Origin: SAR324 cluster bacterium
GTDB taxonomy: Bacteria; SAR324; NAC60-12
DNA length: 64,000 nucleotides
Reading direction: 5' to 3'
NCBI GenBank assembly: GCA_015231825.1
Contig: JADGAV010000003.1
Span: 178,954 to 242,953, forward strand
The position numbers and the translations under genes were made by a program. The notes beneath the pieces are model-generated. The model did no database searches and was not told where the DNA came from. It saw nothing but the letters and a program-made list of their open reading frames with translations. This document shows, in pieces, positions 22,613 to 41,517 of this stretch (position 1 is its first letter; each line of letters starts with the position of its first letter).

Positions 22613-23779
22613 ATGATGGGATTTCTTAAGGGAACTTCATCGAGGCTGCTCACCGCAGCAGTTTTTTTGCTTCTGATCTCCGTTATTTTATATTCTGTCT
22701 GGTCGGACTTTAACAAACCGGCGGACCCGATAAAGATTGGACTGTCAAATACATTAACCGGACCGGCTTCGACCTCTGGAATCCACTCCAGGAACGCGGT
22801 CATCTTGGCCGTAGATCAAATCAACAAGTCCGGAGGCATCAAAGGCCGCCCATTGGAACTGATCATCAAAGACGACAAAGGTCAGGCAGATGAAGCAGTG
22901 AGAGTCGATCGCGAACTGATAAATGAAGGAGTGATCGGTATCATTGGTCACTACCTCAGTACTCTCAGTGTGAAAGCGGCCGGGATTGTCAGTGAAAGCC
23001 GGGTGCCGATGATCTCCACCGGGGCCACGACTCCTGAACTGGGCCGACTGGATGACTTTTTTCTACGTTTGATGGTGCCCGACAATCTGCGAACCCAGTT
23101 TTTTGCAGACCTGGTGTACGAGCGGCTGAAAATCAAAACGATGGCAATCATTACAGACCTTTCCAATCCCAATTACACCATTCCCTTCAGCCGGCATTTC
23201 AGAAAAAACTTCACGGAGCTGGGAGGGAGCATTTCATCTGCAGTCCGTTTTAATTCGCTAGAAAAGTATTCGGCGTCCGAAATAGCCAATCAGGTGACCG
23301 CATCAAATTCAGATGGTGTCCTTCTTGTCACCAATGCGATCAATGGTGCACTGCTCAGCCAGCGGTTGAGAATCATTGACCCGGAAATTAAACTGATTGT
23401 CTCCCCCTGGGCACTGCCCGAAGTAGATTTCATCAAAAACGGCGGTCAGGCGATTGAGGGTGCAATCAGTCTGGTCGAGCTCGACCTCGAATCTTCAAAT
23501 TCAAAATTTCGTACTTTCCGGGCGCAGTATCAAACACGATACAACGAGGAACTCAGCCTCAATGGCTACGTGGCATATGAAGCAGCACAGATTTTTTTTG
23601 AAGCTCTGGCGAAAACAGAAAATCCGGCAGACCTAAAAAAAAACATCCTCGAACAAGGCAATTTTGAAGGCCTGATCGATCAGATCACCCTCGATTCGTT
23701 TGGTGATCCCATCCGTCCTCTCTATATTGTTGAAGTGCAGAATTCTTTGATCAGGACAATTGGAAAAATGGAAAGATAA
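22613..23779 (+). CDS. Membrane-anchored/periplasmic LivK-type substrate-binding protein associated with a sensor kinase
   Basis: N-terminal TM, PIKIGLSNTLTGP, AVDQINKSGGIKGRPLELIIKDD and FEGLIDQITLDSFGD. Stop lies 4 nt before the kinase start. Confidence 0.88.
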   Translation: MMGFLKGTSSRLLTAAVFLLLISVILYSVWSDFNKPADPIKIGLSNTLTGPASTSGIHSRNAVILAVDQINKSGGIKGRPLELIIKDDKGQADEAVRVDRELINEGVIGIIGHYLSTLSVKAAGIVSESRVPMISTGATTPELGRLDDFFLRLMVPDNLRTQFFADLVYERLKIKTMAIITDLSNPNYTIPFSRHFRKNFTELGGSISSAVRFNSLEKYSASEIANQVTASNSDGVLLVTNAINGALLSQRLRIIDPEIKLIVSPWALPEVDFIKNGGQAIEGAISLVELDLESSNSKFRTFRAQYQTRYNEELSLNGYVAYEAAQIFFEALAKTENPADLKKNILEQGNFEGLIDQITLDSFGDPIRPLYIVEVQNSLIRTIGKMER

Positions 23780-23783
23780 GCCA

Positions 23784-26402
23784 ATGAAACACTTGAGCCT
23801 GAAAACGACATTGATCTGGAGCTTTGTTTTTGTTGCCGCAATTCCATTGATCGTTACTTCAATCTGGGTTTCCCGGGAACTGGAGCTCGAAATTGAAAAA
23901 GAGACTGCAGAAAAGAATAACTTGCTGACCGCATCAATTGTCAAAGAGGTTGAGCAGTTTATTGAAATGGCTGTCCTGCATCTGGAACAAGTGGCGGACC
24001 TGTATGATCAGGGAATGATCGTTTCCGAGAAAATAGACGAATATTTCGAATTGCTGGTGCATCATGATGACATTTTTGACTCGGTTGAAATTATCAGTCC
24101 TCAAGGTTATATAGCAAATATATTTCCTTTTGATGAAAATTCCATTGGCCTGGACGTTTCAAATCAGAACTATTTCCAGGAGTATCTAAAAACAAAGGCC
24201 ATTTACTGGTCAAAAATTTCGATTTCCCTGCAAACCGGAGAGCCGACCCTGACTTTGAGCCTGCCTATCTCGGAAGGGATCCTGCTCGGGCACCTCAACC
24301 TATCCTCCCTCAGTCGAATCACTGACAGGTTTAAACTGGGAATCAGAGATTTTGCTCAAATCACCGACAACAGAGGAAATATTATCGCCGGCCCGGACAA
24401 GGCCCTGATTCGGGAAAGATATAATGCAAGTTATCTCAAACCCATTCAGGAAGGGTTGACAGGAAATTCAGGAACCTATCAATACCAATTCAATGAAACC
24501 GAATGGACCGCCAGTGTTGCCATCGTAGCAAGCAACGGGTGGATCGTCACCTACTCTCAACCGACGGAAGACATCGTTGCTCCTGTCGAGGCAATGGAAA
24601 GTCTTGTGCTCAGCGGCCTTGTCGCGGCGATTCTGACGGCAGCATTCATTGCCGCGATCTGTTTGAGGTATCTGTTGACACCGCTGAATTATCTGGTTGA
24701 AGAATCGAAAGGCATCACCCAGGGAAATTTCTCGGCAAGATTCCAAAGAGGATATTTTCCAGAACTGGAGCAGCTGGCCAATGCCCTCAACAGGATGCTT
24801 GAAACCATCAAAGAAAGAGAGACGGCTCTGCAGGAAGAAGTGTCAGTTAGAATCCAGGCGGAAAACAACTTAAAAAACAATCAGGCCCATCTGCAGGCAA
24901 TACTTGACCATTCACCCTTCCTCATTTCCATAAAAAATACGTCAGGTGATTTTCTGCTTGTCAATCAAAAGTTCGATATTCTGGAAGGCCCTTCTCCAGA
25001 AGAATTCGTCGGTAGAAACGCTTTGGATTTTTTTCCCAAAGAGGTTGCCAGCAAATTATGGAAAAATGATATGGCAACGTTAAAGAGAGAAAGTGCCGAA
25101 GAATTTGAAATAGAATTAAAACATAAAGATGGGACATGGCATACTTACTCAAGCATTAAATTTCCTTTGAAAGACGAGGAAGGCAAAATCTGGGGGATTT
25201 GTACTTTTTCTTCAGATATTTCAGAAAAAAAGAAATTCGAAGAAGAAAAAACAGAATTGGAAGGCCAGCTCAATCAGGCGCAGAAAATTGAATCAATCGG
25301 AACTTTAGCTGCGGGCATTGCCCATGATTTCAACAACATCCTGGCAGCCATTCTGGGCTATGCAGAACTTGCCTTAAATGAAATTGATGAACCCCAGCTT
25401 CTGGAAAATGACCTCAAAGAGATTATCCAGGGCAGCAGGCGTGCCAAAGAACTGGTGGAACAGATTCTTGTGTTCAGTAGAAAAAACGAATTGGAGTTGC
25501 GTCCCCTGAGAGCGCAACTGATTGTCAAAGAAGCCATGAAACTTCTGCGTTCTTCAATTCCTTCCACCATTGAGATCAGGCAAAATATCGATCCAAATTG
25601 CAAGGCGATACTCGCGGATCCTTCACAAATTCATCAAGTTGTTATGAATCTGTGCACCAATGCCTTTCACGCCATGGCCGAGTCAGGGGGATTGCTTACA
25701 GTGAACTTGAACATGACACAATTGGAAGCCGACAAGACCGAAATGATCCCGCTTAAATCCGGCTCTTATCTGAAACTTGAGATCAGTGATTCCGGACTTG
25801 GCATTTCAAAAGACATTCTGGAAAATATTTTTGAACCCTATTTCACAACCAAAGAAAAAGGAAGAGGAACCGGTCTTGGTCTTGCCGTTGTTTACGGGAT
25901 TGTCACTCGTCTAAACGGACGTATCTCCGTTGTCAGTCAACCCGGAAAAGGGTCGACATTCACCATTGTACTGCCGACAATTTATGAACCAAAAATTGCT
26001 GATCCGGAAGAACACTCAACTGATCTTCCAAGAGGTAAGGAACGGATCCTCTTTGTTGATGATGAACCCAGCATCGTTCAATTGAACCAAAAAGTGCTCT
26101 CCAAACTGGGCTATCAGGTCACTGCTTTTACCCATTCACCGGATGCCCTGCTATTGTTCCAAAAAAATCCGGAAGCCTTTGATCTTCTCATCACGGACAT
26201 GACAATGCCCAAGCTGACTGGAACCGAACTTGCCGGCCTAATCCGCAAAACACGCCCCAATCTGCCGATAATTCTGTGTTCCGGGTACAGCGATAATTTC
26301 AGTCCTGAAGATGCGCAGCAGCAGGGTGTTCACTTTATGAAGAAACCCCTTAATCTAAAAGACCTGGCAAACACTGTTCGAAAGCTTGCCGACTCCACAT
26401 GA
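23784..26402 (+). CDS. Hybrid sensor histidine kinase (TM-dCache-TM-HAMP-PAS-HisKA-HATPase-REC)
   Basis: H-box GIAHDFNNIL, N-box QVVMNLCTNA, EPYFTTKEKGRGTGLGL, receiver ILFVDDE...LITDMTMP...KP. Start moved to ATG 23784. Confidence 0.94.
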   Translation: MKHLSLKTTLIWSFVFVAAIPLIVTSIWVSRELELEIEKETAEKNNLLTASIVKEVEQFIEMAVLHLEQVADLYDQGMIVSEKIDEYFELLVHHDDIFDSVEIISPQGYIANIFPFDENSIGLDVSNQNYFQEYLKTKAIYWSKISISLQTGEPTLTLSLPISEGILLGHLNLSSLSRITDRFKLGIRDFAQITDNRGNIIAGPDKALIRERYNASYLKPIQEGLTGNSGTYQYQFNETEWTASVAIVASNGWIVTYSQPTEDIVAPVEAMESLVLSGLVAAILTAAFIAAICLRYLLTPLNYLVEESKGITQGNFSARFQRGYFPELEQLANALNRMLETIKERETALQEEVSVRIQAENNLKNNQAHLQAILDHSPFLISIKNTSGDFLLVNQKFDILEGPSPEEFVGRNALDFFPKEVASKLWKNDMATLKRESAEEFEIELKHKDGTWHTYSSIKFPLKDEEGKIWGICTFSSDISEKKKFEEEKTELEGQLNQAQKIESIGTLAAGIAHDFNNILAAILGYAELALNEIDEPQLLENDLKEIIQGSRRAKELVEQILVFSRKNELELRPLRAQLIVKEAMKLLRSSIPSTIEIRQNIDPNCKAILADPSQIHQVVMNLCTNAFHAMAESGGLLTVNLNMTQLEADKTEMIPLKSGSYLKLEISDSGLGISKDILENIFEPYFTTKEKGRGTGLGLAVVYGIVTRLNGRISVVSQPGKGSTFTIVLPTIYEPKIADPEEHSTDLPRGKERILFVDDEPSIVQLNQKVLSKLGYQVTAFTHSPDALLLFQKNPEAFDLLITDMTMPKLTGTELAGLIRKTRPNLPIILCSGYSDNFSPEDAQQQGVHFMKKPLNLKDLANTVRKLADST

Positions 26403-26662
26403 ATACACGTCCGCTTTTCTTCTGTTCAATTACAAGCTCCTTTTTTTGCCAAATCATGGTCTGGTTTTGCTCGCCTTTTTTCCCGAAAAATGTTTTTGAT
26501 TGTCAGATAAGCAAGGCGGTCATCATAAATTCAATTTCCATCTTAAAAACTCAAAATCCGCCTGTTTGCCGGCTGAACAATATTGGGAAGCAAACAAGGC
26601 AGCGGAATTTGAGTACCTGTTGACAAGTAACGTTCAACTAAAAACCAGAGAGGAGTATCACA

Positions 26663-28093
26663 ATGGGCAATTCAAGAATTTCCGGAAAATATCGAGAACC
26701 GATTCTTGCTTCGGGACTGGAGCAAAATTCCCTGACAAGCTGGCTGGATTCGATTGATTCCTTCAAGCTTCCCGGTGAAGCGGGCGCAGAACGTCTGGAA
26801 TCCGATGCAGGAACGGCGGGTGGCCTGATTCAACAAGGCTGGGATTTTTGCAGCAGACTTCCGGTAAAATCAAAGCGGTCCCTGAAAGAACGCACGGCCG
26901 GAGAATCTGTTGTAGAACTGATCAGGATCGTAGCCCGTCAGTTCTGCCAACCCCATCGCAAAGCCATCTATCAAAAATTGACAAATGACTTTTCACAATT
27001 TCTGAGAGTGGACGAGATTGCCGAAAAGTCGGCGGAACTTTGGCCGGGGATCATGCCTTCCAGAAAAGATCTGGCTCAGGAAGCGGAGAGAATGCAGCTG
27101 GATAAAGATGGTTTGGAACTGCTGCAGGGAATTTTCTTTTCTCAGCTGCTTTCGGAACCGGAAGCAGGAATTCACATGCTGCAGGCTATGCTCCGCCCCA
27201 AACCGGAATCTCTCGAACGATTGAAAGCCTTTCAGCAGGACGGTGTTCTGCAGCTGGATCATGCTCGCCTTGAAAATCGTGATGGCGTCGCTTTCATCGA
27301 CTTGATCAATACCCGTTACCTCAATGCAGAAGATGATGCTTCGATCATTGACCACGAAACAGCAATTGATCTTGCATTGCTTCATCCAGAGATCAAGATG
27401 GGAGTGCTCCGCGGCTCTGTTGTCGATCACCCCCGGTATAAAGGACGACGGGTTTTTGATTCTGGAATCAATCTGACCAAGATCTATCACGGGAAACTCT
27501 CGTTTCTCTTTTACCTCAACCGCGACTGGGGAATGATCAACAAACTATATTACGGAATTGCAGGGAATGCTCCCTGGGAAGAATGCAAGCCGGAAAATAC
27601 TTCTGAAATCCCCTGGATCGCTGCAGTCGAGAGTTTCGCCATAGGCGGAGGATGTCAAACCCTGCTGGTCGTCGACTATGTGATTGCCGAATCAGGCTCC
27701 TACTTCAACCTGCCTGCCCGTAAAGAAGGAATTATTCCGGGGGCTGCCAATTTGAGATTGGCCCGTTTTCTGGGAGAACGAATGGCTCGGCAGGCGATCA
27801 TGTTTGATAAGACATTTTATGTGGAAAGCCCGGAAGCCGCCGGGTTGATCAATGAGGTCGTTCCCCGGGAACAAATGGATCAGGTGATTCAACGCACGGT
27901 TGACAACGCGCTGGGTTCAGGGATGGTGAGCGCCGCAGGAAACCGTAAAGCGCTTCGGGTGCAGCAGGAGTCTCTGGATAGTTTCCGCCGCTACATGACA
28001 ACTTATGTCGAAATCCAATCACAATGCCATCTTAGCGGTCAATTGATTCACAATCTGGAAAAACACTGGAATGCCAAAGAAAAAAAATTATAG
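26663..28093 (+). CDS. dpgC: DpgC-like cofactor-independent arylacetyl-CoA 1,2-dioxygenase (crotonase superfamily with N-terminal helical extension)
   Basis: DpgC-type motifs along the whole length: IYQKLT...LRVDE, KDGLELLQGIFF, HMLQAMLRP, LNAEDD, ETAIDLALL, HPRYKGRRVFDSGINL, PWIAAVESFAIGGGCQTLLV, LPARKEGIIPGAANLRL and F-RY. Strong RBS GAGGAG. Confidence 0.88.
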   Translation: MGNSRISGKYREPILASGLEQNSLTSWLDSIDSFKLPGEAGAERLESDAGTAGGLIQQGWDFCSRLPVKSKRSLKERTAGESVVELIRIVARQFCQPHRKAIYQKLTNDFSQFLRVDEIAEKSAELWPGIMPSRKDLAQEAERMQLDKDGLELLQGIFFSQLLSEPEAGIHMLQAMLRPKPESLERLKAFQQDGVLQLDHARLENRDGVAFIDLINTRYLNAEDDASIIDHETAIDLALLHPEIKMGVLRGSVVDHPRYKGRRVFDSGINLTKIYHGKLSFLFYLNRDWGMINKLYYGIAGNAPWEECKPENTSEIPWIAAVESFAIGGGCQTLLVVDYVIAESGSYFNLPARKEGIIPGAANLRLARFLGERMARQAIMFDKTFYVESPEAAGLINEVVPREQMDQVIQRTVDNALGSGMVSAAGNRKALRVQQESLDSFRRYMTTYVEIQSQCHLSGQLIHNLEKHWNAKEKKL

Positions 28094-28097
28094 GAAA

Positions 28098-29657
28098 TCA
28101 ATGAATTCGTTTTTCTCTTCCTTTCCAGAAAGGTTCTCTCAATTTGTTTTTCAAAATTTTCCCTGCACCGCTCAAAGGAAGTGGTTCTCCGCGAAATTCC
28201 ACGTTTCTGGGGATCTTGAATCCCCCCAATTTTCCGGTGCAGAAATCTATAATTTCCTTTTCTTCCGCATTGGATCCTTCTTTGAGAACAACGATGGCAT
28301 GCACCACTTCTCCCCACTGCTCATCGGGAATACCAACTACAGCACAGGAAGCGACGGCAGGATGCTGATAAATCACATTTTCTATTTCAACCGAATAAAT
28401 GTTTTCTCCCCCGGAGATAATCATGTCTTTCAAGCGGTCTGAAATATAGACAAACCCATCCTCGTCCATATAGCCCGCATCCTGTGAGTGCATCCAACCT
28501 TCGCGAATGGCGTTTGCGGTTTCTTCCGGACGTTTCCAGTAGCCTTTCATCACGTTGTCTCCCTTGACAATGACTTCACCCACCACCCCTCGTGGAACCT
28601 CTCTGCCGTCTTCATCCACAATTTTGACTTCAATGCTGGGAATAGCTCGTCCTGCCGATTTAATTTTTGAATTCGGTCCGTCCAGCGTATGGAATTTTGA
28701 AGGAAGAATGGTAGCAAGAGGGGAAAGCTCTGTCATTCCATAAGCCTGATTGAAGGTGCAATGGGGGATTTCCACCATAGCCTTCCTGATCACTTCTTCC
28801 GGCATCGGAGAAGCGCCATAAATAATTTTCTGCAGATGAGACAAATCGTAATTTCGGATCAAGGGATGATTCACCGTCATATTGATCATCGTAGGGACAA
28901 TCAGCGTATGAGTCACTTTCTCTGCTTCAAACACTTTGAGCATCGCTTCCGGTTCAAATCTAGGCATGAAAACGTGCAGTCCCTGAACCATGGTGATGCT
29001 GCCCGTCGAACAGATATCGGCAGCATGAAACATCGGTGCCGCATGCAGATAGACCGAGTCGCTGCTGTAATCAAACATCATCAGGGTGTTCAAATTGTTG
29101 AAAACCAAATTGTGATTCGTCAGCATCACTCCTTTGGGCAGCCCGGTGGTGCCTCCGGTATAAAACAGTCCTGCTACATCATCACTGTCGGAGGCCGCAT
29201 CAGGAATCGCATCTGCCGCATTCAGAATTTTTTCGAAATGATGAGTCCCATCGGCGGGCTTTTCCTGATCGGTAATATGAATAATCTCTTTGACCGATTC
29301 AAGCTTGCCTTCAAAATCAGCAAGCATGCCCACGAAGGTGTCATCCACCAGGAGAATTTCTGTCTCTGAATCATTGAGCATAAAAATCAGTTCAGGTGGC
29401 GAGAGGCGAATGTTGAGGGGAACCATGATCGCCCCTGCCCAGGGAACCGCATAATAATACTGCAGATAACAATCGCTGTTCAACGCCAAAATAGCGACTC
29501 GTCCTCGCTCGCTCAAGCCCAGATTTTTGAACGCTCCGGCAAGCTTGCTGATACGCGACCCCAATTCGCTCCAAGTGTACCTGCGAGTCCCGTCAACCGT
29601 GGCGACACGTGATCCATTCATCTGCATTGCGTTCTTCAACCCTTGCGTGATATACAT
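28098..29657 (-). CDS. Acyl-CoA ligase (FadD-like AMP-binding enzyme)
   Basis: YTGGTTGLPKGVML, APMFHAA, YGMTE, DRLKDMIISGGENIY and LPLSGAGKILK. Confidence 0.93.
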   Translation of the reverse strand: MYITQGLKNAMQMNGSRVATVDGTRRYTWSELGSRISKLAGAFKNLGLSERGRVAILALNSDCYLQYYYAVPWAGAIMVPLNIRLSPPELIFMLNDSETEILLVDDTFVGMLADFEGKLESVKEIIHITDQEKPADGTHHFEKILNAADAIPDAASDSDDVAGLFYTGGTTGLPKGVMLTNHNLVFNNLNTLMMFDYSSDSVYLHAAPMFHAADICSTGSITMVQGLHVFMPRFEPEAMLKVFEAEKVTHTLIVPTMINMTVNHPLIRNYDLSHLQKIIYGASPMPEEVIRKAMVEIPHCTFNQAYGMTELSPLATILPSKFHTLDGPNSKIKSAGRAIPSIEVKIVDEDGREVPRGVVGEVIVKGDNVMKGYWKRPEETANAIREGWMHSQDAGYMDEDGFVYISDRLKDMIISGGENIYSVEIENVIYQHPAVASCAVVGIPDEQWGEVVHAIVVLKEGSNAEEKEIIDFCTGKLGGFKIPRNVEFRGEPLPLSGAGKILKNKLREPFWKGREKRIH

Positions 29658-29774: not shown

Positions 29775-30668
29775 TCATTGTTGTCTGCTCACTCCTGCCA
29801 TCTCTTCCATAACAGCGCAGACCGCCGCAGTATCCTGTTTCGCCCTGCCATTGGCCAGCGCAGTTGTGTAGATTTGGGTGGATGCAGACATCAAGGGAAC
29901 AGGACATTGAAGCTGACTGGCAAAACTGCTGATGATATTGATGTCCTTCTGATAAACTTCCATCTTCATCGTCGCTTCATCATAGGATCCCTCCACCATC
30001 ATCGGGCCGCGCACTTCGAACATGCGGGAGGACCCCGCCCCGTCGCTGATGACTTTGTATACCAGTTCCGGGTCCAATCCACTCTTCATCCCGAGTACCA
30101 GGGCTTCTGCCGCGGCGACATTGTGGATTGTGACCAGCAGATTGGCAATAAATTTCATTTTGGACCCGGTGCCGAAATCGCCTACATAATAGTTGCCGCG
30201 AGAGAAACCTTCAAAGATCGAACTGCATTGTTCGCAGGCATCCGAATCTCCACTGGCGTAAACAATTAAATCTTTTTTGACCGCTTGAGCTCCGGTGCCG
30301 CTGAGGGGACAATCCAGCATTTCAATCCCTCCCGATTTCAAACGTTCATACGCATTCTGTTTTGTCTCCAGGGGAAGTGTGCTGGTTTCAACAACAATCA
30401 ATCCTGGTTTGGAAACCGCCATCAACCCATCCTTTCCATCCACTACGGCTTCCAGTGCCGCGATGCTTGGCAGCGAAGTGATCACCACATCGGATTGCTC
30501 GGCCAGATCTCGACAGGAATTCGCCGCACGTCCGTTCCGGCTGACCAGTGATTGGACTTGTTCGGGTTCAACATCATATCCCAGCACCGAAAAACCCGCT
30601 TTGAGGAGGTTTGCCGAGATGGCGGATCCCATAATTCCTAACCCGATAATACCAACTGTTTGTTTCAT
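29775..30668 (-). CDS. NAD(P)-dependent beta-hydroxyacid dehydrogenase (3-hydroxyisobutyrate dehydrogenase family)
   Basis: GIIGLGIMG, LDCPLSGTG and catalytic-Lys motif GSKMKFIANLL. Confidence 0.92.
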   Translation of the reverse strand: MKQTVGIIGLGIMGSAISANLLKAGFSVLGYDVEPEQVQSLVSRNGRAANSCRDLAEQSDVVITSLPSIAALEAVVDGKDGLMAVSKPGLIVVETSTLPLETKQNAYERLKSGGIEMLDCPLSGTGAQAVKKDLIVYASGDSDACEQCSSIFEGFSRGNYYVGDFGTGSKMKFIANLLVTIHNVAAAEALVLGMKSGLDPELVYKVISDGAGSSRMFEVRGPMMVEGSYDEATMKMEVYQKDINIISSFASQLQCPVPLMSASTQIYTTALANGRAKQDTAAVCAVMEEMAGVSRQQ

Positions 30669-32982: not shown

Positions 32983-35082
32983 TCAAAGCTCAATTTCAAA
33001 ATTACCCCAGGCATCCACCGTCAAGTGTTGTCCCGGATGCAGCACAACGGTGGTCATCTCCAGTTCGAGAACTGCAGGGCCGCTGATTTGATTGCCCGGC
33101 ACAAGTTGGTGCCCGTCATAAATAGGAGTATCGTTTTTCGGACCAAGATCCGGCCAATGCACCTCCCGTGGGCGGCGAACCGCAGATTCCGGGATCTTTT
33201 CCGTCAGGACCTCTGCAGCTGGAATATGTGGTTTCGGAGTCTGTGCTGTTGCCCGGCAGCGCACTGCCACGATTTCTAACTGGGCACCGGGCAGTGACGC
33301 ACCTTTTCCATAAAGCTGCTCGTAGTTGACAACAAAACGCGTGCGCAAAGGCTCCAGCTGTGCGGCTTCAATCTGATCGCCATCAATTTCAACTTCCACT
33401 TCATGAATTTGCCCCTTATGCCGCATATCAAAGGTGAAGCGGAACTGCTGATGCTCTGCCTGAACCCCTTCTTCAATCAATTGTTCCAAAGCTTGTGTCT
33501 TCAAATTTCCGATGACGGCGTTGAGGCGAGCCGGATCAAAGGGGGAGCTCATAATATCAACCTGATCGCTGATGTGCAGAATATCTGCTGCGGCAGAACC
33601 AAAAGCACACCAGACTGAAGCAGTATCTCTCTGAGGAATTATTATCTTCTGCACTCCGAGTTCACGGGCGAAGACACCGGCATGCACCGGGCCGGCTCCT
33701 CCAAAGGCAAAGAGCACAAAATCCCTTGGATCAAACCCTTTTTGAATGGTCACTTTTCGGATCAAATCGGCCATTTGAAAATCAGCAATTTTCACAATCC
33801 CTGCCGCGCATTCGTATAAATCCATCCCCAAACGATCTGCAATTTCCCCAATTGCCGCTTCCGCGGCAGCTTTATCCAGCTGCATTGTACCACTGGCAAA
33901 ATGATCGGGTGAGAGATAGCCCAGTACAACATCGGCATCAGTCACTGTCGCCACCCGGCCCCCTCGCTGGTAACAGACAGGACCGGGAACAGCCCCTGCG
34001 CTTTCCGGCCCAACCCGCAAAGTGCCGGTGACTTCATCTATCCAAACTTTGCTTCCTCCACCGCTGCCGATCGCCTGTATATCGACTTTGGGTAAAAAAT
34101 ATTCATACTGATTGACCAGACTATGGAAGGAAAACGCCGGTTCGCCCTTGAAAACAACTCCCACGTCAAAAGAAGTTCCTCCCATGTCGGTCGTGATGAT
34201 ATTGGAATAGCCCATTGCTTCTCCAATGTATTTGGCTCCCATCACACCGGAGACCGGACCTGAATCCAAAGTCAGCAATGGTGCTTTCACAGCCCGTTCA
34301 ATCGCAATGGTTCCCCCGGCACACTGGGTGATTTGAACTGGAGACGAATACCCCAGTTGACTCAATTGCTCTTCTACCTTTCTCAGATAGGCAGTGGTTT
34401 CAGGACCAATATAGGCGTTCAGCGCCACTGCAGTGGTCCGTTCGTATTCACCCCATTTCGGAATCAGCTCTGAAGAGCAGGTCACGAACAGATCCGGCGC
34501 CATGGATTCGACCATCTGCTGTACACGGCGTTCATGAAGCGGCTGCAAAAATGACCAGAGGAAACAAATCGCAATGGCCTCCACCCCCTGATCCACCAGA
34601 CGCTTGATGGACTGCCTCACTTCTTCCTCATTCAGTTCAACCACAATTTTGCCAAAACAATCCACTCGCTCCGAGACCCCCTGGATTAAACGCTTGGGAA
34701 CAATCGGATCCGGCTTGCTGCTCTCTGCAAAATGCACGACCTTCTGAACATCACGTCCCGAAAGGCCTCGGGATCCGCGCATAATATGGATCACATCGTT
34801 GTGCCCGCGGGTAGTGATCAATCCCACTTTCGCTCCCTTTTTCTGCACAACGGCATTGGTGCCCACCGTCGTGCCATGGGCGAGATGAGTGATGGATTGA
34901 GCCAGCTTTTCCGGAGACAATTCCAGTTTCTCAGCAGCCGCGGTCAACGCGGCCATCATTCCATTGGTGAAATTGCCGGGAGTTGAGGGCGCTTTTGCTG
35001 TGATCACCGTTCCTGCCTGATCAACAACGACACAATCAGTAAAGGTGCCACCAATGTCTATTCCACAGAGATAGGACGTCAT
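32983..35082 (-). CDS. Hydantoinase A/oxoprolinase family ATP-binding subunit
   Basis: GIDIGGTFTD, HGTTVGTNA, EYERTTAVALNAY, DMGGTSFD, GPESAGAVPGPVCY, FGGAGPVHA and GPAVLE. Confidence 0.95.
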   Translation of the reverse strand: MTSYLCGIDIGGTFTDCVVVDQAGTVITAKAPSTPGNFTNGMMAALTAAAEKLELSPEKLAQSITHLAHGTTVGTNAVVQKKGAKVGLITTRGHNDVIHIMRGSRGLSGRDVQKVVHFAESSKPDPIVPKRLIQGVSERVDCFGKIVVELNEEEVRQSIKRLVDQGVEAIAICFLWSFLQPLHERRVQQMVESMAPDLFVTCSSELIPKWGEYERTTAVALNAYIGPETTAYLRKVEEQLSQLGYSSPVQITQCAGGTIAIERAVKAPLLTLDSGPVSGVMGAKYIGEAMGYSNIITTDMGGTSFDVGVVFKGEPAFSFHSLVNQYEYFLPKVDIQAIGSGGGSKVWIDEVTGTLRVGPESAGAVPGPVCYQRGGRVATVTDADVVLGYLSPDHFASGTMQLDKAAAEAAIGEIADRLGMDLYECAAGIVKIADFQMADLIRKVTIQKGFDPRDFVLFAFGGAGPVHAGVFARELGVQKIIIPQRDTASVWCAFGSAAADILHISDQVDIMSSPFDPARLNAVIGNLKTQALEQLIEEGVQAEHQQFRFTFDMRHKGQIHEVEVEIDGDQIEAAQLEPLRTRFVVNYEQLYGKGASLPGAQLEIVAVRCRATAQTPKPHIPAAEVLTEKIPESAVRRPREVHWPDLGPKNDTPIYDGHQLVPGNQISGPAVLELEMTTVVLHPGQHLTVDAWGNFEIEL

Positions 35083-35095
35083 AGAATTCTCCCGC

Positions 35096-35626
35096 TTATT
35101 GTGCAGAATCTACAACCAGGTTTCCGGACTCATCGAGACTCAGTCCAGTTTCCTGCGCACGATTCAGCACCGAAGGTGACCAGGACACTTTTCCTGCATC
35201 GGTGCCACCGAGAATTGCCATCAGATAGCCGGGTTCTTCTCCCACGTTTCGAAATCCGCGCATCACTCCCACGGGGACTGAAATCACATCAAAAGGTTCC
35301 AGAATAAATTCATTTTCTCCATCATCCCCCCAATAAACTGACCATCTGCCGGACATTGGGATGAAAACCTCCACAGTGGGGTGCGAATGCAGGGCGGCTC
35401 CTTTTCCAGGCTCCGCTCCCACATAGGTAATGTTGAATCCCTGAGGATCGCTGATTGCCGGTTTGAGTTCAGGGTCTTCGGTAACGCCGGGGCCGATCAC
35501 GTTGAAGATGTCCCTCAGGTGTTCCGGCAATCGGGTGTCAACAAAAGCCTGTTTGCTGGGTTTCAGTGTTTTGAAACGAGCCAGACGCTCCTCCATTTTT
35601 TCCTTTGAAATAGTGACTGTATCCAT
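35096..35626 (-). CDS. Cupin-domain protein
   Basis: GAALHSHPTVEVFIPMSGRW...DVISVPVGVMRGFRN; first gene of the hydantoinase operon. Confidence 0.88.
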   Translation of the reverse strand: MDTVTISKEKMEERLARFKTLKPSKQAFVDTRLPEHLRDIFNVIGPGVTEDPELKPAISDPQGFNITYVGAEPGKGAALHSHPTVEVFIPMSGRWSVYWGDDGENEFILEPFDVISVPVGVMRGFRNVGEEPGYLMAILGGTDAGKVSWSPSVLNRAQETGLSLDESGNLVVDSAQ

Positions 35627-37860: not shown

Positions 37861-38106
37861 GAAAAGCACTCCTTCCTGAAAGATTGTTCTGTCATCATGA
37901 TTTTGTCTTCAGAAATTGTATCGCGAATCAAAGGAAGTACAAGTGAAAAGTCGGATCGAAAAACGATTTAGTCTTGAAAAAGTCAAATAACTATTGACAA
38001 AAAAACGCCATTTGGCATTGTATATCATAATGAATGTTCAAGAGGAAAAACTTCCCGTTGACAACTGTTGAATGATTTTTCGACTTCCCACTTTTGGAGG
38101 AGGATT

Positions 38107-41100
38107 ATGAAGAAGCTAATTTCGATACCCTTACTGTTTTCAATTGCCTTCCTTTTTTTCACCCACACCTCGCAGGCGCAATCTGAAGAAAAAGAACTGT
38201 TTTCCACACGTAACAAAGCCGGGGTGAGAAACGGTCCGCGGGCTTTCGCGACCTTCACGCTTCAGCAGCCGACCACGATCACCCGGATCAACACCTACCA
38301 TTGGAATGACGGGAAAGGAACCCCCAGTCCCGGGATGATCGGCATTCAGGGGCAAGGTTCCTGGCAGGCCAAAGGCAGTCCAGGCATGAATGGAACTCCA
38401 AACGCGGAATGGTGGGCTTTTCCGAATCTCACTTTGCAGCCCGGCACCTACACTCTGACCGACAGCGATTCGGTAACCTGGTCCCAAAACGGTCAGTCCA
38501 ATGGAATCGGGCATTTTTCCATCTATGGAATTGTCCAATCGGTTTCAATGCCTTCTCCCAGCCCTGCAGCAGATTCTTCAGGAGCAAGTGAGCAGGAAAT
38601 CCATAGTACCCGCAACAAAGCCGGTGTGCAGAATGGACCTCGTCAATTTGCTACATTCACGCTTCAGCAGCCGATGCTCATTACCCGGATAAACACCTAT
38701 CATTGGAACAACGGAAAGGGCACGCCGAGCCCCGGCAAGATCGGTATCCAGGGACAGGGATCCTGGCAAGCCAAAGGCAGTCCAGGCATGAACGGCACAC
38801 CCAATGCGGAATGGTGGGCTTCTCCGAATATTACACTGCAGCCCGGCACCTATACGGTTACTGACTCTGATTCAGTTACCTGGTCCCAGAATGCCGGATC
38901 CGGAGGGGTTGGGCATTTTTCCATCTATGGAAAAATTATCACTGCGGCAGCGACCAGCGCAAATGTGAGCGGGGAATGGGATTTCGGCTCAAAATTGCTA
39001 CTCAAACAGGAAGGCAATCGAATTACAGGCACATACAATAATGGTCGAAGCAGGATCGAAGGTATTTTAAACGGAAGGGTATGGTCCGGGACCTTCAATT
39101 ACAACGCCCAGGTTCACGGTACCTTTTCCTACACTTTTTCACCCGACTTCAATTCATTTGAAGGAGTATGGGCTAACAGCACCGATTCAAACAAGGGAAC
39201 CGATAAAGGCGTACGTCTGTCCAGCGCGGCCCCCTCTCAAACAGCCCAGTCCGGTCCCACTTCATCAAGTATGGGAAATCCTTCAATCCGCCTGCAAAAA
39301 CAGACTTTCACCGTTGGAGAACCCGTAGTGGTCACCTATGAAAACCTTCCAGGCAATTCGCAGGACTGGGTTTCCGTCACTGCAGCTTCGAAGCCGGACA
39401 ACCAGTATGATAAATGGACTTACACCCAGGGGAAGAAAAACGGTACCTTTGAAGTATCGGATCTGCCGCCGGGGAGCTATCAGGCACGTTTGTATCTCAA
39501 TTGGCCTGCGGGTCAGTACAATGTTCAAGGTCGAGTTTCATTTGAGATCACTGCTCAGGCACCTGCACCACAAGCCGGGCCCTCGATGGCTTCGCTTCGT
39601 CTGGATAAAAGCGCTTTTATGCCCAATGAAGAAATCCGGGTGTATTTCACTGCCTCTTCGAATTACGCAGCCAATGCCTGGGTTGGGATCATCCCTTCCA
39701 GCGTAGCCCACGGGAGTGAAGCAGAAAATGATAAATACGATCTCAGCTATCAGTATCTTGAAAAGAGAAGCAGCGGAACACTGACTTTTAAAGCTCCCGC
39801 CCAAAATGGATCCTATGATTTCCGCATGAACGACGCGGATGGCGGCGGTCGTGAGGTCGCCTCCTTCACCTTTTCGGTCGGTGCCATGTCTCAAACTGCA
39901 GCGGCACCTGCACAGCCCGTCGGGGCCGCTGTTCAGGGCTCACTTTCGAATTCGGTATCCGCTGCTGTTGCTCAGTTCACGATGACTCCGAATGCGGCAA
40001 TCAGCGGCTATAACAATCAGCATTTGACAGGAGTTTCTCCCAGCGATTGTGCCCAGCAATGCCTGCAAAACAGCTGGTGCCAATCATTTGATTACTACAA
40101 AAATGAAAGCAAATGCGATCTGAGTGACAAAAACGCAGCGCAGGTTGGCGGGTTAAAAACTAACTATGGGGGCAACCCTTATGATCACTATGCCAAAGTT
40201 CAGGGAAGCGGACCTGTTTTAACGGAGACTGCGATGCCTCCTTTTGCGGTGATCGCAGGGAGTTGGGACAGTTCCGAAGGAAAAATGCAAGTCTATCAGA
40301 ACGGCAATAATGTTTCCGGGATCTACGGCTCCGACAATGGAAAAATATCAGGAATTCTTTCCGGAAACACCCTCTCTGGACTATGGACGGAAAATTCATC
40401 ATCCAAAAAGTGTGCAACGGCCAGGAACGGGTCATATTACTGGGGTCAGATTCGTTTTACTTTTCAGAATCCTCAACAATTCAATGGTGTCTGGGGATAC
40501 TGCAACGAGCCGCTGTCCGGCACCAATTGGACTGGCAATAAAACAGCCTCGTCCCCGACGGCAGCTTCAATTCAGCCAACCGCCCCTCAACAGGATGTGC
40601 AGCCGTACAAAGTACAACTTCCCCCGGCGGCCTCCGGAGAATCCATCGTATTTTATTCCCGAAATATAGCCTCTGTGCAAAACGGTCCAAGCCAATATGC
40701 CACCTTTGCAATCCAGCAGCCGATGATGATCACTCGGATCAATACCTACCACTGGAACAATGGAAAAGGAACTGCCCGCCCTGGCAGCATCGGGATTAAA
40801 GGTCTGGGGTCCTGGCAGGCGCAGGGCAGTCCCGGCATGTACAATACTCCCAATGCTGAATGGTGGGTATCTCCCAATTTGCTTCTGCAGCCCGGTACAT
40901 ACAGCATTGTTGATTCGAACCCGGCCACCTGGTCACAAAACCCGGGATCTCAAGGAATCGGCCACACAGCAGTATACGGCAAAACGGTATCCACCCCCCA
41001 AGCAATCGCGACTGCCCCGAAAAAAACATTTGATGCCAATGTTCAGCAATCAACCCAAAAAGTCGTCGTTCCTCAACCGGCTGCAATCAAAGCTCAGCCC

Positions 41101-41517
41101 GCCCCTCCAGCACAAGCTGCGACGGAAACGGCCGCATGCAGTCCCAAAGCGGGAGCTGATTTGCGGCACTGCAATTTTGCAGGAAAAAAACTGGATGGAG
41201 CCGATTTTTCAAACACGGACCTCTCCGGCGTCTCTTTTAAAAAAGCATCTTTAAAAAAGGCAAAATTTGAAGGAGCCCAATGTGAAAAAACTGATTTTTC
41301 CCACAGTAATTTGGAAAAGGCATCTTTCAAAAAAGCCGGCTGCGAAGGAGCCGATTTTACAAAGGCGAAACTGGAGAAAGCAAACTTCAGAAACGCTAAT
41401 TTAAGCAACACGAAATTTCGCAAGGCTGACGTCAACAAAACCAGCTTCAAAGGGGCAAAGTTGAGAGGATCCGATGTCAGAAGTGATCCGATGAATCTGA
41501 TCAAAGCCAAATTTTAG
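38107..41517 (+). CDS. Large secreted modular protein: 3 copies of an unassigned 112-aa domain, 2 small beta-rich domains, 2 Ig-like domains, PAN/Apple domain, C-terminal pentapeptide repeats
   Basis: Signal peptide MKKLISIPLL...SQA after RBS GGAGGAGG. Internal repeats are visible by eye; PAN-like CAQQCLQNSWCQSFDY...CDLS; pentapeptide tail ADLRHCNFAG...ADFSNTDLSGVSFKKASLKKAKFEG. Confidence 0.88.
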   Translation: MKKLISIPLLFSIAFLFFTHTSQAQSEEKELFSTRNKAGVRNGPRAFATFTLQQPTTITRINTYHWNDGKGTPSPGMIGIQGQGSWQAKGSPGMNGTPNAEWWAFPNLTLQPGTYTLTDSDSVTWSQNGQSNGIGHFSIYGIVQSVSMPSPSPAADSSGASEQEIHSTRNKAGVQNGPRQFATFTLQQPMLITRINTYHWNNGKGTPSPGKIGIQGQGSWQAKGSPGMNGTPNAEWWASPNITLQPGTYTVTDSDSVTWSQNAGSGGVGHFSIYGKIITAAATSANVSGEWDFGSKLLLKQEGNRITGTYNNGRSRIEGILNGRVWSGTFNYNAQVHGTFSYTFSPDFNSFEGVWANSTDSNKGTDKGVRLSSAAPSQTAQSGPTSSSMGNPSIRLQKQTFTVGEPVVVTYENLPGNSQDWVSVTAASKPDNQYDKWTYTQGKKNGTFEVSDLPPGSYQARLYLNWPAGQYNVQGRVSFEITAQAPAPQAGPSMASLRLDKSAFMPNEEIRVYFTASSNYAANAWVGIIPSSVAHGSEAENDKYDLSYQYLEKRSSGTLTFKAPAQNGSYDFRMNDADGGGREVASFTFSVGAMSQTAAAPAQPVGAAVQGSLSNSVSAAVAQFTMTPNAAISGYNNQHLTGVSPSDCAQQCLQNSWCQSFDYYKNESKCDLSDKNAAQVGGLKTNYGGNPYDHYAKVQGSGPVLTETAMPPFAVIAGSWDSSEGKMQVYQNGNNVSGIYGSDNGKISGILSGNTLSGLWTENSSSKKCATARNGSYYWGQIRFTFQNPQQFNGVWGYCNEPLSGTNWTGNKTASSPTAASIQPTAPQQDVQPYKVQLPPAASGESIVFYSRNIASVQNGPSQYATFAIQQPMMITRINTYHWNNGKGTARPGSIGIKGLGSWQAQGSPGMYNTPNAEWWVSPNLLLQPGTYSIVDSNPATWSQNPGSQGIGHTAVYGKTVSTPQAIATAPKKTFDANVQQSTQKVVVPQPAAIKAQPAPPAQAATETAACSPKAGADLRHCNFAGKKLDGADFSNTDLSGVSFKKASLKKAKFEGAQCEKTDFSHSNLEKASFKKAGCEGADFTKAKLEKANFRNANLSNTKFRKADVNKTSFKGAKLRGSDVRSDPMNLIKAKF
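38194..40980 (+). repeat. Three 336-bp intragenic domain repeats (38194-38529, 38596-38931, 40645-40980)
   Basis: Ungapped 112-codon copies with the conserved core ITRINTYHWN-x-GKGT...GSWQA-x-GSPGM...PNAEWW...LQPGTY...TWSQN. Copies 1 and 2 differ at about 15 of 112 residues by hand count. Confidence 0.93.

Follow-up and report, generated by a model that had tools for sequence, protein, structure and literature searches.

A DpgC-like gene in a SAR324 bacterium and a putative catabolic sister clade of DpgC and PglA

The DpgC-like gene and its product

The DNA analysed here, a stretch of 64,000 nucleotides from contig JADGAV010000003.1 of a SAR324 cluster bacterium (hereafter 'the window'), carries at positions 26663..28093 a gene of the DpgC/PglA family. 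We assign its product to the uncharacterised 'PARKEGIIPG' clade and regard it as a putative arylacetyl-CoA alpha-dioxygenase that needs no cofactor. An initial annotation, made from the letters alone, had recognised a full-length DpgC-like protein with a series of retained motifs; all of them are present in the 476-aa translation (YLNAEDD, HPRYKGRRVFDSGINL, FAIGGGCQ, EGIIPG and NRDWGM), and the homology is far above chance. A Shine-Dalgarno sequence, GAGAGGAG, lies 7-14 nt 5' of the ATG, and the start is well defined because the open frame is of 483 codons only, 7 more than the open reading frame (ORF) retained. A scan of positions 26200-28400 gave no promoter-like site and no more terminator-like sites than expected by chance, and the 260-bp spacer 5' of the gene has no inverted repeats.

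The NCBIfam model of DpgC, NF042432, matches the window protein with 394.4 bits (E 7.8e-118) over model positions 6-400 of 412. Crystallised DpgC, or (3,5-dihydroxyphenyl)acetyl-CoA 1,2-dioxygenase of clusters for glycopeptide and related antibiotics (2NP9, 2PG8, 4YLH, 5KAG/H/J), is found with E 9.2e-93 (2np9, 5kag) over query residues 64-453, and all five distinct DpgC sequences of the PDB match the same residues at about E 1e-92. The AlphaFold2 model rests on an alignment of 28 sequences, has a mean predicted local distance difference test score (pLDDT) of 85.5 and displays the DpgC fold, with an N-terminal helical domain, a crotonase core and C-terminal helices. Foldseek aligned it to 2np9_A over 425 columns with 40% identity (E 2.3e-33, target-normalised template modelling (TM) score 0.91).

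Could the protein be a plain enoyl-CoA hydratase? Hydratases have two catalytic glutamates, one after GGG-x and one in a P-x-x-x-E-G loop. The window protein lacks this pair: the first site is a glutamine (Q332, in FAIGGGCQ), as in DpgC, and the second is a glutamate (E355).

A sister clade of DpgC and PglA

A word-indexed search scored 8000 candidates, 7855 of them at E <=1e-10. Among the best 120, most have a length near 475 aa, with identities of 52-79%; the few source labels given among them name Gammaproteobacteria, Burkholderiales, SAR324, Acidobacteriota and metagenome-assembled genomes of Proteobacteria, while homologues on genome contigs add Gemmatimonadales, Lacisediminimonas and Comamonadaceae. 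The clade of the window protein is widely spread, with members in Gemmatimonadota, Burkholderiales, SAR324, Acidobacteriota and others. When representatives at 50% identity were searched exhaustively, 193 clusters came out at E <=1e-30. Within the phylum of the window the distribution is patchy: 12 of 88 species genomes have a DpgC-like gene, including 9 of 19 in one family and, in the window's own family, 2 of 44 plus the window's genome. The copy of one same-family relative (G010:C43:123874-125223, loci L030/L035) has one in-frame TAA within the match, and may be a pseudogene or contain a sequencing error.

We built a main tree from 61 full-length representatives and the context-labelled sequences (quick IQ-TREE search, LG+G4, midpoint root, branch support by SH-like approximate likelihood ratio test, SH-aLRT). 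A branch with SH-aLRT 99 parts a side of 25 rows from a side of 68 rows that contains the window protein. Ten representatives were scanned with NF042432, whose equivalog cut-off is 530 bits. Only P0150 (578.7 bits) and P0146 (534.3 bits) exceed it, both on the 25-row side; the other eight comprise five on the DpgC side (413-494 bits) and three on the side of the window protein (369-431 bits). The window protein thus differs from DpgC in scoring below the equivalog cut-off and in lying across a 99% branch, outside the clade of equivalog-scoring sequences.

The initial annotation placed DpgC in the synthesis of 3,5-dihydroxyphenylglycine, which is correct for DpgC and incomplete for the family, a homologue, PglA, being proposed to act on unsubstituted phenylacetyl-CoA. 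In PMC7089894, PglA is named as the phenylglycine (Phg) dioxygenase of the pglA-E phenylglycine operon found in producers of pristinamycin and virginiamycin S, converting phenylacetyl-CoA to benzoylformyl-CoA, an activity apparently proposed from genetics and not from the pure enzyme. Where does PglA fall relative to our clade? Searching plasmids with tblastn gave 24 records, 21 from Streptomyces and one each from Embleya, Nonomuraea and Tistrella. On three Streptomyces plasmids (L134:6905-8302, L135:6998-8410 and L137:5905-7302) the homologue, annotated as 'enoyl-CoA hydratase/isomerase family protein' in RefSeq, lies between a non-ribosomal peptide synthetase (NRPS) gene and genes for pyruvate dehydrogenase (PDH) E1 alpha and beta, an alpha/beta hydrolase, MbtH and an aminotransferase. 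We infer that these three are pglA orthologues, since their gene order matches that of pglA-E and since, for S. virginiae, virginiamycin S is described as containing phenylglycine (PMC7089894). No NCBIfam model seems to carry the name PglA.

When the PglA orthologues were added in a second IQ-TREE run (quick search, LG+G4, midpoint root, with the Tistrella homologue entered only as a 71-aa fragment), they joined P0149 in a 29-row, 99%-supported set together with DpgC, and the window protein stayed outside. DpgC and PglA are therefore both on one side of the 99% branch. The sequences place the window protein in a deep and uncharacterised sister clade of these actinomycete enzymes, and not among DpgC orthologues. 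The Tistrella mobilis homologue (41.5% identity) lies at 961372-962496 of pTM3 (L136), a 1.1-Mb conjugative plasmid of a cultured alphaproteobacterium, and may offer a cultured handle for experiments.

Are the active-site residues of DpgC conserved across this branch? Columns were numbered by anchoring on the PDB chains in an alignment made by MAFFT with faster settings. The mutants in the PDB fix the identity of the residues: 2pg8 (R254K) shows K in place of the second R of RRELGY, 5kaj (A319C) has C in LPAAKEG, and 5kah is V425T. Arg254, Glu189, Gln299 and the O2-pocket residue Ala319 are key functional residues of DpgC, and mutagenesis work on DpgC reportedly puts Arg254 and Glu189 in contact with a substrate phenol. 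The residues along the O2 path of DpgC are given in PMC4618494 as Lys428, Phe432, Ala112, Val429 and the loop 318-322. On both sides of the branch and in the intermediate groups the alignment keeps E223 (Glu189 in DpgC), R287 (Arg254), Q332 (Gln299), A352 (Ala319), E355 (E322) and L271 (L237); at R287, for instance, arginine is found in 25/25, 16/16 and 50/52 members of the three groups compared. DpgC and the window protein also have the HP(R/K)Y and GINL motifs in common.

Other columns separate the two sides. In the group of the window protein, D288 (E255 in DpgC) is D in 40/52, C331 is C in 48/52, R353 (A320) is R in 49/52, C455 is C in 43/52, L461 (V425, in the O2 pocket) is L in 43/52 and N464 (K428) is N in 42/52; the DpgC side has E in 25/25 at the first of these, A in 19/25 at position 353, R in 22/25 at 455, V in 22/25 at 461 and K in 15/25 at 464. 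The window protein further differs from DpgC by T272 in place of K238 and by a 3-residue insertion (SGM) before VSAAGNRK. Across 93 sequences, arginine occurs at position 353 or at position 455 and never at both (51 R/C, 18 A/R, 0 R/R), which suggests that one functional arginine moved between two structural elements as the two super-clades diverged.

The initial annotation had given RRELGY as the DpgC segment corresponding to NRDWGM. Crystallised DpgC does read RRELGY there; the argument for an altered ring specificity drawn from this difference is, however, weak. The central arginine (R287, or Arg254) is kept and its flanks vary even within the DpgC-side clade. Only D288 (E255 to D) is clade-specific within NRDWGM, and the difference as a whole carries little information because the other positions vary on both sides. 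Nor do R287 and E223 report ring hydroxylation, since the PglA orthologues keep the same Arg and Glu; we accordingly rejected the retention of Arg254 and Glu189 as proof of a phenolic substrate.

PglA is 36-40% identical to the window protein and shares with it T272, L282, Y448, L461 and a C-terminal L-x-x-(N/T)-L-E-x-x-W motif, the motif being absent from DpgC sequences. Eighteen columns separate PglA from DpgC in a comparison made without the Tistrella homologue. The clade consensus is PglA-like in 5 of them (including T272 and L461), DpgC-like in 3 and has its own residue in 2, the rest being mixed. With only 5 of 18 discriminating columns, a description of the clade as globally PglA-like was rejected.

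Is the reaction dependent on O2 at all? An O2-independent crotonase-type enzyme (a thioesterase, hydratase/isomerase, decarboxylase or retro-Claisen hydrolase) acting on the acyl-CoA from a neighbouring ligase would agree with the Pfam result, a generic ECH_1 match only (PF00378, 64.2 bits for a cut-off of 27, residues 313-411), with the label 'thioesterase DpgC' that JGI gives to several clade members, with gene contexts that are very varied, and with the clade-specific changes around the O2-pocket residues (R353 beside A352, L461 for V425, C455). However, 48/52 clade members have the glutamine equivalent to Q332, which replaces the first catalytic glutamate of hydratases and is likewise present in DpgC and PglA, positions A352, L271, I357 and L461 remain hydrophobic, and the strong conservation of the DpgC-specific N- and C-terminal architecture suggests the same type of reaction. 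We consider an O2-independent reaction unlikely and favour the alpha-dioxygenase.

Gene neighbourhoods and genomic context

A FadD-type acyl-CoA ligase gene lies next to the DpgC-like gene in the window, and encodes a candidate activator of the acid substrate. We compared 92 loci: the window, 6 genome contigs, 6 regions of relatives and 79 metagenome contigs (L084 was dropped, being on the same contig as L035). A tblastn scan found an AMP-forming ligase within 3 kb in 35 of the 92, of the short PaaK type in 28 and of the FadD type in 7, window included. The 87 loci with a full-length gene divide into 28 with PaaK, 6 with FadD and 35 that are too short to judge, leaving 18 where each flank reaches 1.5 kb or more and no ligase is seen; clustering these loci at 80% identity gave 17 PaaK, 5 FadD, 12 none and 13 short clusters. 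ORFs were chosen by a pick aware of GC content at third codon positions (GC3). Four loci (L046, L054, L056 and L062) are absent from the ORF-based counts and present in the tblastn scan, where they show no ligase. In the ORF-based count, 27 loci have one PaaK-type neighbour each, in 22 cases as the immediately next gene and in the same orientation. One of the 28 PaaK-type neighbours was scored with TIGR02155 (PaaK) and reached 677.3 bits, above the 646.3 cut-off.

In a context tree (FastTree, with four DpgC-side sequences as root and without one locus whose gene is partial, <380 aa), the PaaK-linked loci are the basal lineages of the clade, with the DpgC-like gene directly upstream of the PaaK-class ligase. 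Phenylacetyl-CoA, the thioester made by PaaK-class ligases, is also the substrate proposed for PglA (PMC7089894). Because of the PaaK linkage, the substrate of the clade likely differs from that of DpgC. The other recurrent neighbours of the PaaK-linked group (endonuclease III, CysZ, DUF2244, a C92 peptidase and an Ada-like regulator) are housekeeping genes and indicate shared ancestry of those contigs. In five further loci (L019, L020, L022, L040 and L069), a homologue of the window's FadD-type ligase (35-39% identity) is encoded no more than about 500 bp from the DpgC-like gene. Searched against the window's genome, the co-directional ligase of L019 has the window's ligase as its top match (385 bits, the next being 253).

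The most complete arrangement is on a metagenome contig (L073:3544-13979), where seven genes on one strand encode a FadD-type ligase, TctC, a thiamine diphosphate (ThDP) enzyme, the DpgC-like protein, an aldehyde dehydrogenase, a UbiD/VdcC-like decarboxylase (322.6 bits, below cut-off) and a ligase. L069 and L022 combine the DpgC-like gene with a ligase and UbiD, and L069 has a ThDP enzyme as well. If the product is a 2-oxo acid, a ThDP decarboxylase with an aldehyde dehydrogenase acting after it would be required, and the L073 operon is a good candidate for elucidation of a whole pathway. About 180 kb upstream on the window's contig, at G000:C48:23238-24896, there is a ThDP enzyme 51% identical (641 bits) to that of L073, possibly an arylglyoxylate decarboxylase encoded elsewhere in the genome.

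This operon also bears on whether the enzyme is DpgC in function, oxidising 3,5-dihydroxyphenylacetyl-CoA in order to break down 3,5-dihydroxyphenylacetate, such as that derived from resorcinolic lipids. The UbiD/VdcC-like hydroxyarylic-acid decarboxylase encoded towards the end of the operon would fit hydroxylated rings, as would the retention of Arg254 and Glu189, the presumed phenol contacts, as R287 and E223. Yet the basal lineages are linked to a PaaK of equivalog level, and the clade has, like PglA, T272 and not K238 and L461 and not V425, with 394 bits for the window protein where DpgC equivalogs require 530. The same Arg and Glu occur, moreover, in PglA orthologues, and the substrate proposed for PglA lacks a hydroxyl (PMC7089894). 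A 3,5-dihydroxylated substrate thus seems very improbable to us, and an arylacetyl-CoA such as phenylacetyl-CoA or a ring-substituted relative is preferred.

Does the window's genome contain the partners expected for antibiotic biosynthesis? The initial annotation had seen no dpgA, dpgB or dpgD, aminotransferase or NRPS gene in the 64 kb, and domain scans of the window bear this out: none lies in it (no dedicated search of the genome for an aminotransferase of hydroxyphenylglycine (Hpg) or dihydroxyphenylglycine (Dpg) was made). It had also called for a genome-wide check of dpgA, dpgB and dpgD. In the assembly (G000; 5.8 Mb, 81 contigs), whose 93.5% completeness limits claims of absence, there were 0 matches to the type III polyketide synthase (PKS) domain PF02797, to DpgA (NF042429) and to the NRPS condensation domain PF00668, and the top DpgB score (NF042431) was 35 bits for a cut-off of 140. 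The genome holds one DpgC-like gene; the 16 further matches are ordinary crotonases with at most 72 bits. By contrast, a Streptomyces globosus plasmid (L133) has a canonical dpgA-dpgB-dpgC-aminotransferase array. The setting also differs from that of PglA, which is encoded between an NRPS gene and pglB/C/D/E (mbtH), whereas the neighbours in the window are a sensor kinase and an acyl-CoA ligase and the NRPS and pglB/C/D/E genes are all missing.

Signs of aromatic catabolism are present. The window's genome has four COX1 (haem-copper oxidase) matches and a BoxB benzoyl-CoA oxygenase (845 bits), and therefore belongs to an organism living with O2. It has no match to PaaA (TIGR02156), its sole PF05138 match being BoxB itself, and no PaaK above cut-off (best 395.9 bits). 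Among the 88 genomes of the phylum, BoxB is found in 12/12 carriers of the DpgC-like gene (one match being partial) and in 21/76 others, counts that are suggestive only because the genomes are related; PaaA is above cut-off in 0/12 carriers and 6/76 others, an exclusion that is not significant (expected overlap about 0.8).

Could the product nevertheless serve biosynthesis, supplying an arylglyoxylate or arylglycine for an unrecognised non-NRPS product or signal, or clearing away phenylacetyl-CoA where it acts as a regulatory metabolite? The two relatives that have been characterised serve biosynthesis, many clade members stand alone amid housekeeping genes, which is atypical of catabolic operons, and in the window a sensor kinase and a binding protein are encoded directly upstream. 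Such a role is hard to reconcile with the lack of NRPS, type III PKS and adjacent aminotransferase genes, with the degradative look of operons containing aldehyde dehydrogenase, UbiD, TctC and ligases, and with the presence of BoxB in every carrier genome. We regard it as improbable, and prefer a catabolic role.

The remaining genes around the DpgC-like gene are listed in Table 1. The gene at 28098..29657 is the last of a minus-strand row formed by the cupin, hydantoinase-A-type, hydantoinase-B and HIBADH-type dehydrogenase genes. The hydantoinase-type pair is a predicted ATP-dependent carboxylase or lactamase. We considered the cupin, the hydantoinase-like genes and the dehydrogenase as a conserved pathway with the DpgC-like gene and rejected this, since they recur in no other locus. 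On the other side, the binding protein and sensor kinase genes are co-directional with the DpgC-like gene and end 260 bp 5' of it; from their position they are possibly a sensor for the island, and they have no conserved counterpart in other DpgC-like loci. The unusual two-gene IOR-like oxidoreductase, whose genes overlap by 40 bp, could form arylacetyl-CoA from arylpyruvate, or convert arylglyoxylate to aroyl-CoA; its linkage to the DpgC-like gene is not kept in other loci. GST and LysR regulator genes are found further upstream in the window, and at 38068-41517 (+) there is a gene for a 1149-aa protein with a PAN domain (residues 637-698) and C-terminal pentapeptide and decapeptide repeats.

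Table 1. Genes at and around the DpgC-like gene, in window coordinates
Feature	Position	Strand	Remarks
Second FadD-type acyl-CoA ligase, 535 aa	16669..18276	+	Pfam AMP-binding; PRK06155 370 bits, below cut-off; convergent with IOR-like genes, island member by position
IOR-like beta-family subunit, 537 aa	18273-19886	-	PRK08312 545.9 bits, above 348 cut-off
IOR-like alpha-like ThDP subunit, 720 aa	19847-22009	-	TIGR03336 (IOR_alpha) 280 bits, below 650.9; Pfam TPP_enzyme_C
Liv-type periplasmic binding protein	22613-23779	+	Pfam
Hybrid sensor kinase, dCache-HAMP-PAS-HisKA-HATPase-REC	23760-26402	+	Pfam; overlaps binding-protein gene
DpgC/PglA-family crotonase-fold gene	26663..28093	+	476 aa, ATG start, full-length DpgC homologue
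FadD-type acyl-CoA ligase, 519 aa	28098..29657	-	Pfam AMP-binding and AMP-binding_C; PRK06187 539.6 bits, above 476 cut-off
HIBADH-type dehydrogenase	29775-30668	-	
Hydantoinase-B subunit, 773 aa	30693-33014	-	C-terminal acetone-carboxylase-gamma fusion (PF08882, residues 675-770)
Hydantoinase-A-type subunit	32983-35082	-	585 bits caprolactamase-alpha (cut-off 1000); 468 bits acetophenone carboxylase gamma
Cupin_2 protein	35096-35626	-	

Predicted reaction and its meaning

We propose, with a probability of roughly 0.55, that the window protein is an O2-dependent, cofactor-free arylacetyl-CoA alpha-dioxygenase making arylglyoxylate for catabolism, the chemistry, substrate and product being suggested by homology and gene context. 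An arylacetic acid (phenylacetate or a ring-substituted relative) would be converted to its CoA thioester by the adjacent AMP-forming ligase; alternatively, arylacetyl-CoA might be supplied from arylpyruvate through the nearby IOR-like enzyme. The crotonase-fold enzyme would then form the thioester enolate, which would react with O2 without metal or cofactor. The alpha-carbon would be oxidised to give an arylglyoxylate. CoA might be lost in this step and the free acid released, as with DpgC, or the product might still be a CoA ester, as has been proposed for PglA. Loss of one carbon from this 2-oxo acid would yield an aroyl-CoA or aryl aldehyde, which would enter benzoyl-CoA (Box) catabolism.

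This proposal is supported by the homology, the fold, the retention of the key residues, the lack of biosynthetic partners, the recurrent linkage to a ligase and the co-occurrence with BoxB. A catabolic subfamily with another ring specificity had been suggested in the initial annotation. The tree, which gives a separate branch, and the neighbourhoods, which are catabolic or orphan and not biosynthetic, sustain the first part of that suggestion; the motif argument for ring specificity does not stand. The protein has the fold of DpgC and PglA and probably their type of reaction, in a separate deep clade and another biological setting.

A number of observations weigh against our proposal. The score on NF042432 misses the DpgC equivalog cut-off, and the pLDDT of the AlphaFold2 model is only 63-79 across residues 300-400. 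The residues near the O2 pocket differ from those of DpgC (V425 to L461, A320 to R353, K428 to N464), and the O2 chemistry could therefore be altered. The ligase gene is convergent with the DpgC-like gene, with 4 bp between the stop codons, and the two are not co-transcribed; the closest orthologues of this ligase (62-63% identity, in G005 and G015) are in genomes without a detected DpgC-like gene, at loci that also lack the other window neighbours, hydantoinase-type genes included. The window's own 48-row sub-clade has 0 PaaK-type ligases, 6 of the FadD type, 16 loci with none and adequate flanks, and 26 that are too short. In the nearest relatives (L032 and L033, 62-64% identity) the gene is found amid genes for MurJ, a class II tRNA synthetase and DNA polymerase III delta. 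The ThDP enzymes of L073 and L069 match generic ThDP/acetolactate-synthase-type models and not benzoylformate decarboxylase (212 bits for a cut-off of 493). Finally, BoxB co-occurrence may mark aromatic degraders in general, and to this is added the lack of significance of the PaaA exclusion.

How does the predicted step relate to known ones? In the anaerobic degradation of phenylacetate in Thauera and Aromatoleum, phenylacetyl-CoA:acceptor oxidoreductase (PadBCD), a membrane-bound molybdenum enzyme, takes its oxygen from water. PadBCD performs the same net step, from phenylacetyl-CoA to phenylglyoxylate and before benzoyl-CoA; it is however unrelated and works without O2, whereas the window protein, with its crotonase fold, is predicted to be soluble and to use O2. 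In aerobes the product of PaaK usually goes to the phenylacetyl-CoA epoxidase PaaABCDE, which is unrelated in both enzyme and chemistry, and of which PaaA was found neither in the window's genome nor in the 12 carriers of the phylum.

Cofactor-independent oxygenases are rare, and DpgC is a textbook case. To our knowledge DpgC has been studied solely as an enzyme of antibiotic pathways, and we found no characterised catabolic or non-actinomycete DpgC homologue in the open-access PMC and bioRxiv literature; a 'DpgC homolog' of phloroglucinol degradation that appears there was set aside as an unrelated enzyme. Extending our proposal from the window protein to the whole 'PARKEGIIPG' clade is more doubtful. 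We suggest only tentatively that the clade is a widespread family of cofactor-free, O2-dependent arylacetyl-CoA alpha-dioxygenases which, with a PaaK- or FadD-type ligase, form a third route of arylacetate degradation, running through arylacetyl-CoA, arylglyoxylate and then aroyl-CoA or aldehyde into the Box or benzoate pathways.

If this were true, the main role of the family would be catabolic, with DpgC and PglA, which serve biosynthesis, as a specialised offshoot. The reaction would do under aerobic conditions what PadBCD does under anaerobic ones, and would give bacteria without paaABCDE an alternative to the Paa epoxidase. Phenylacetate-type acids arise from the breakdown of phenylalanine, styrene, lignin and plant hormones, and for organisms that have Box and lack Paa, the missing aerobic link from such acids to benzoyl-CoA would be filled. 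The clade would also offer diverse natural enzymes making arylglyoxylates, precursors of the phenylglycines of semi-synthetic antibiotics. Annotation would gain as well, since proteins of this clade are now called 'enoyl-CoA hydratase', 'thioesterase DpgC' or DpgC.

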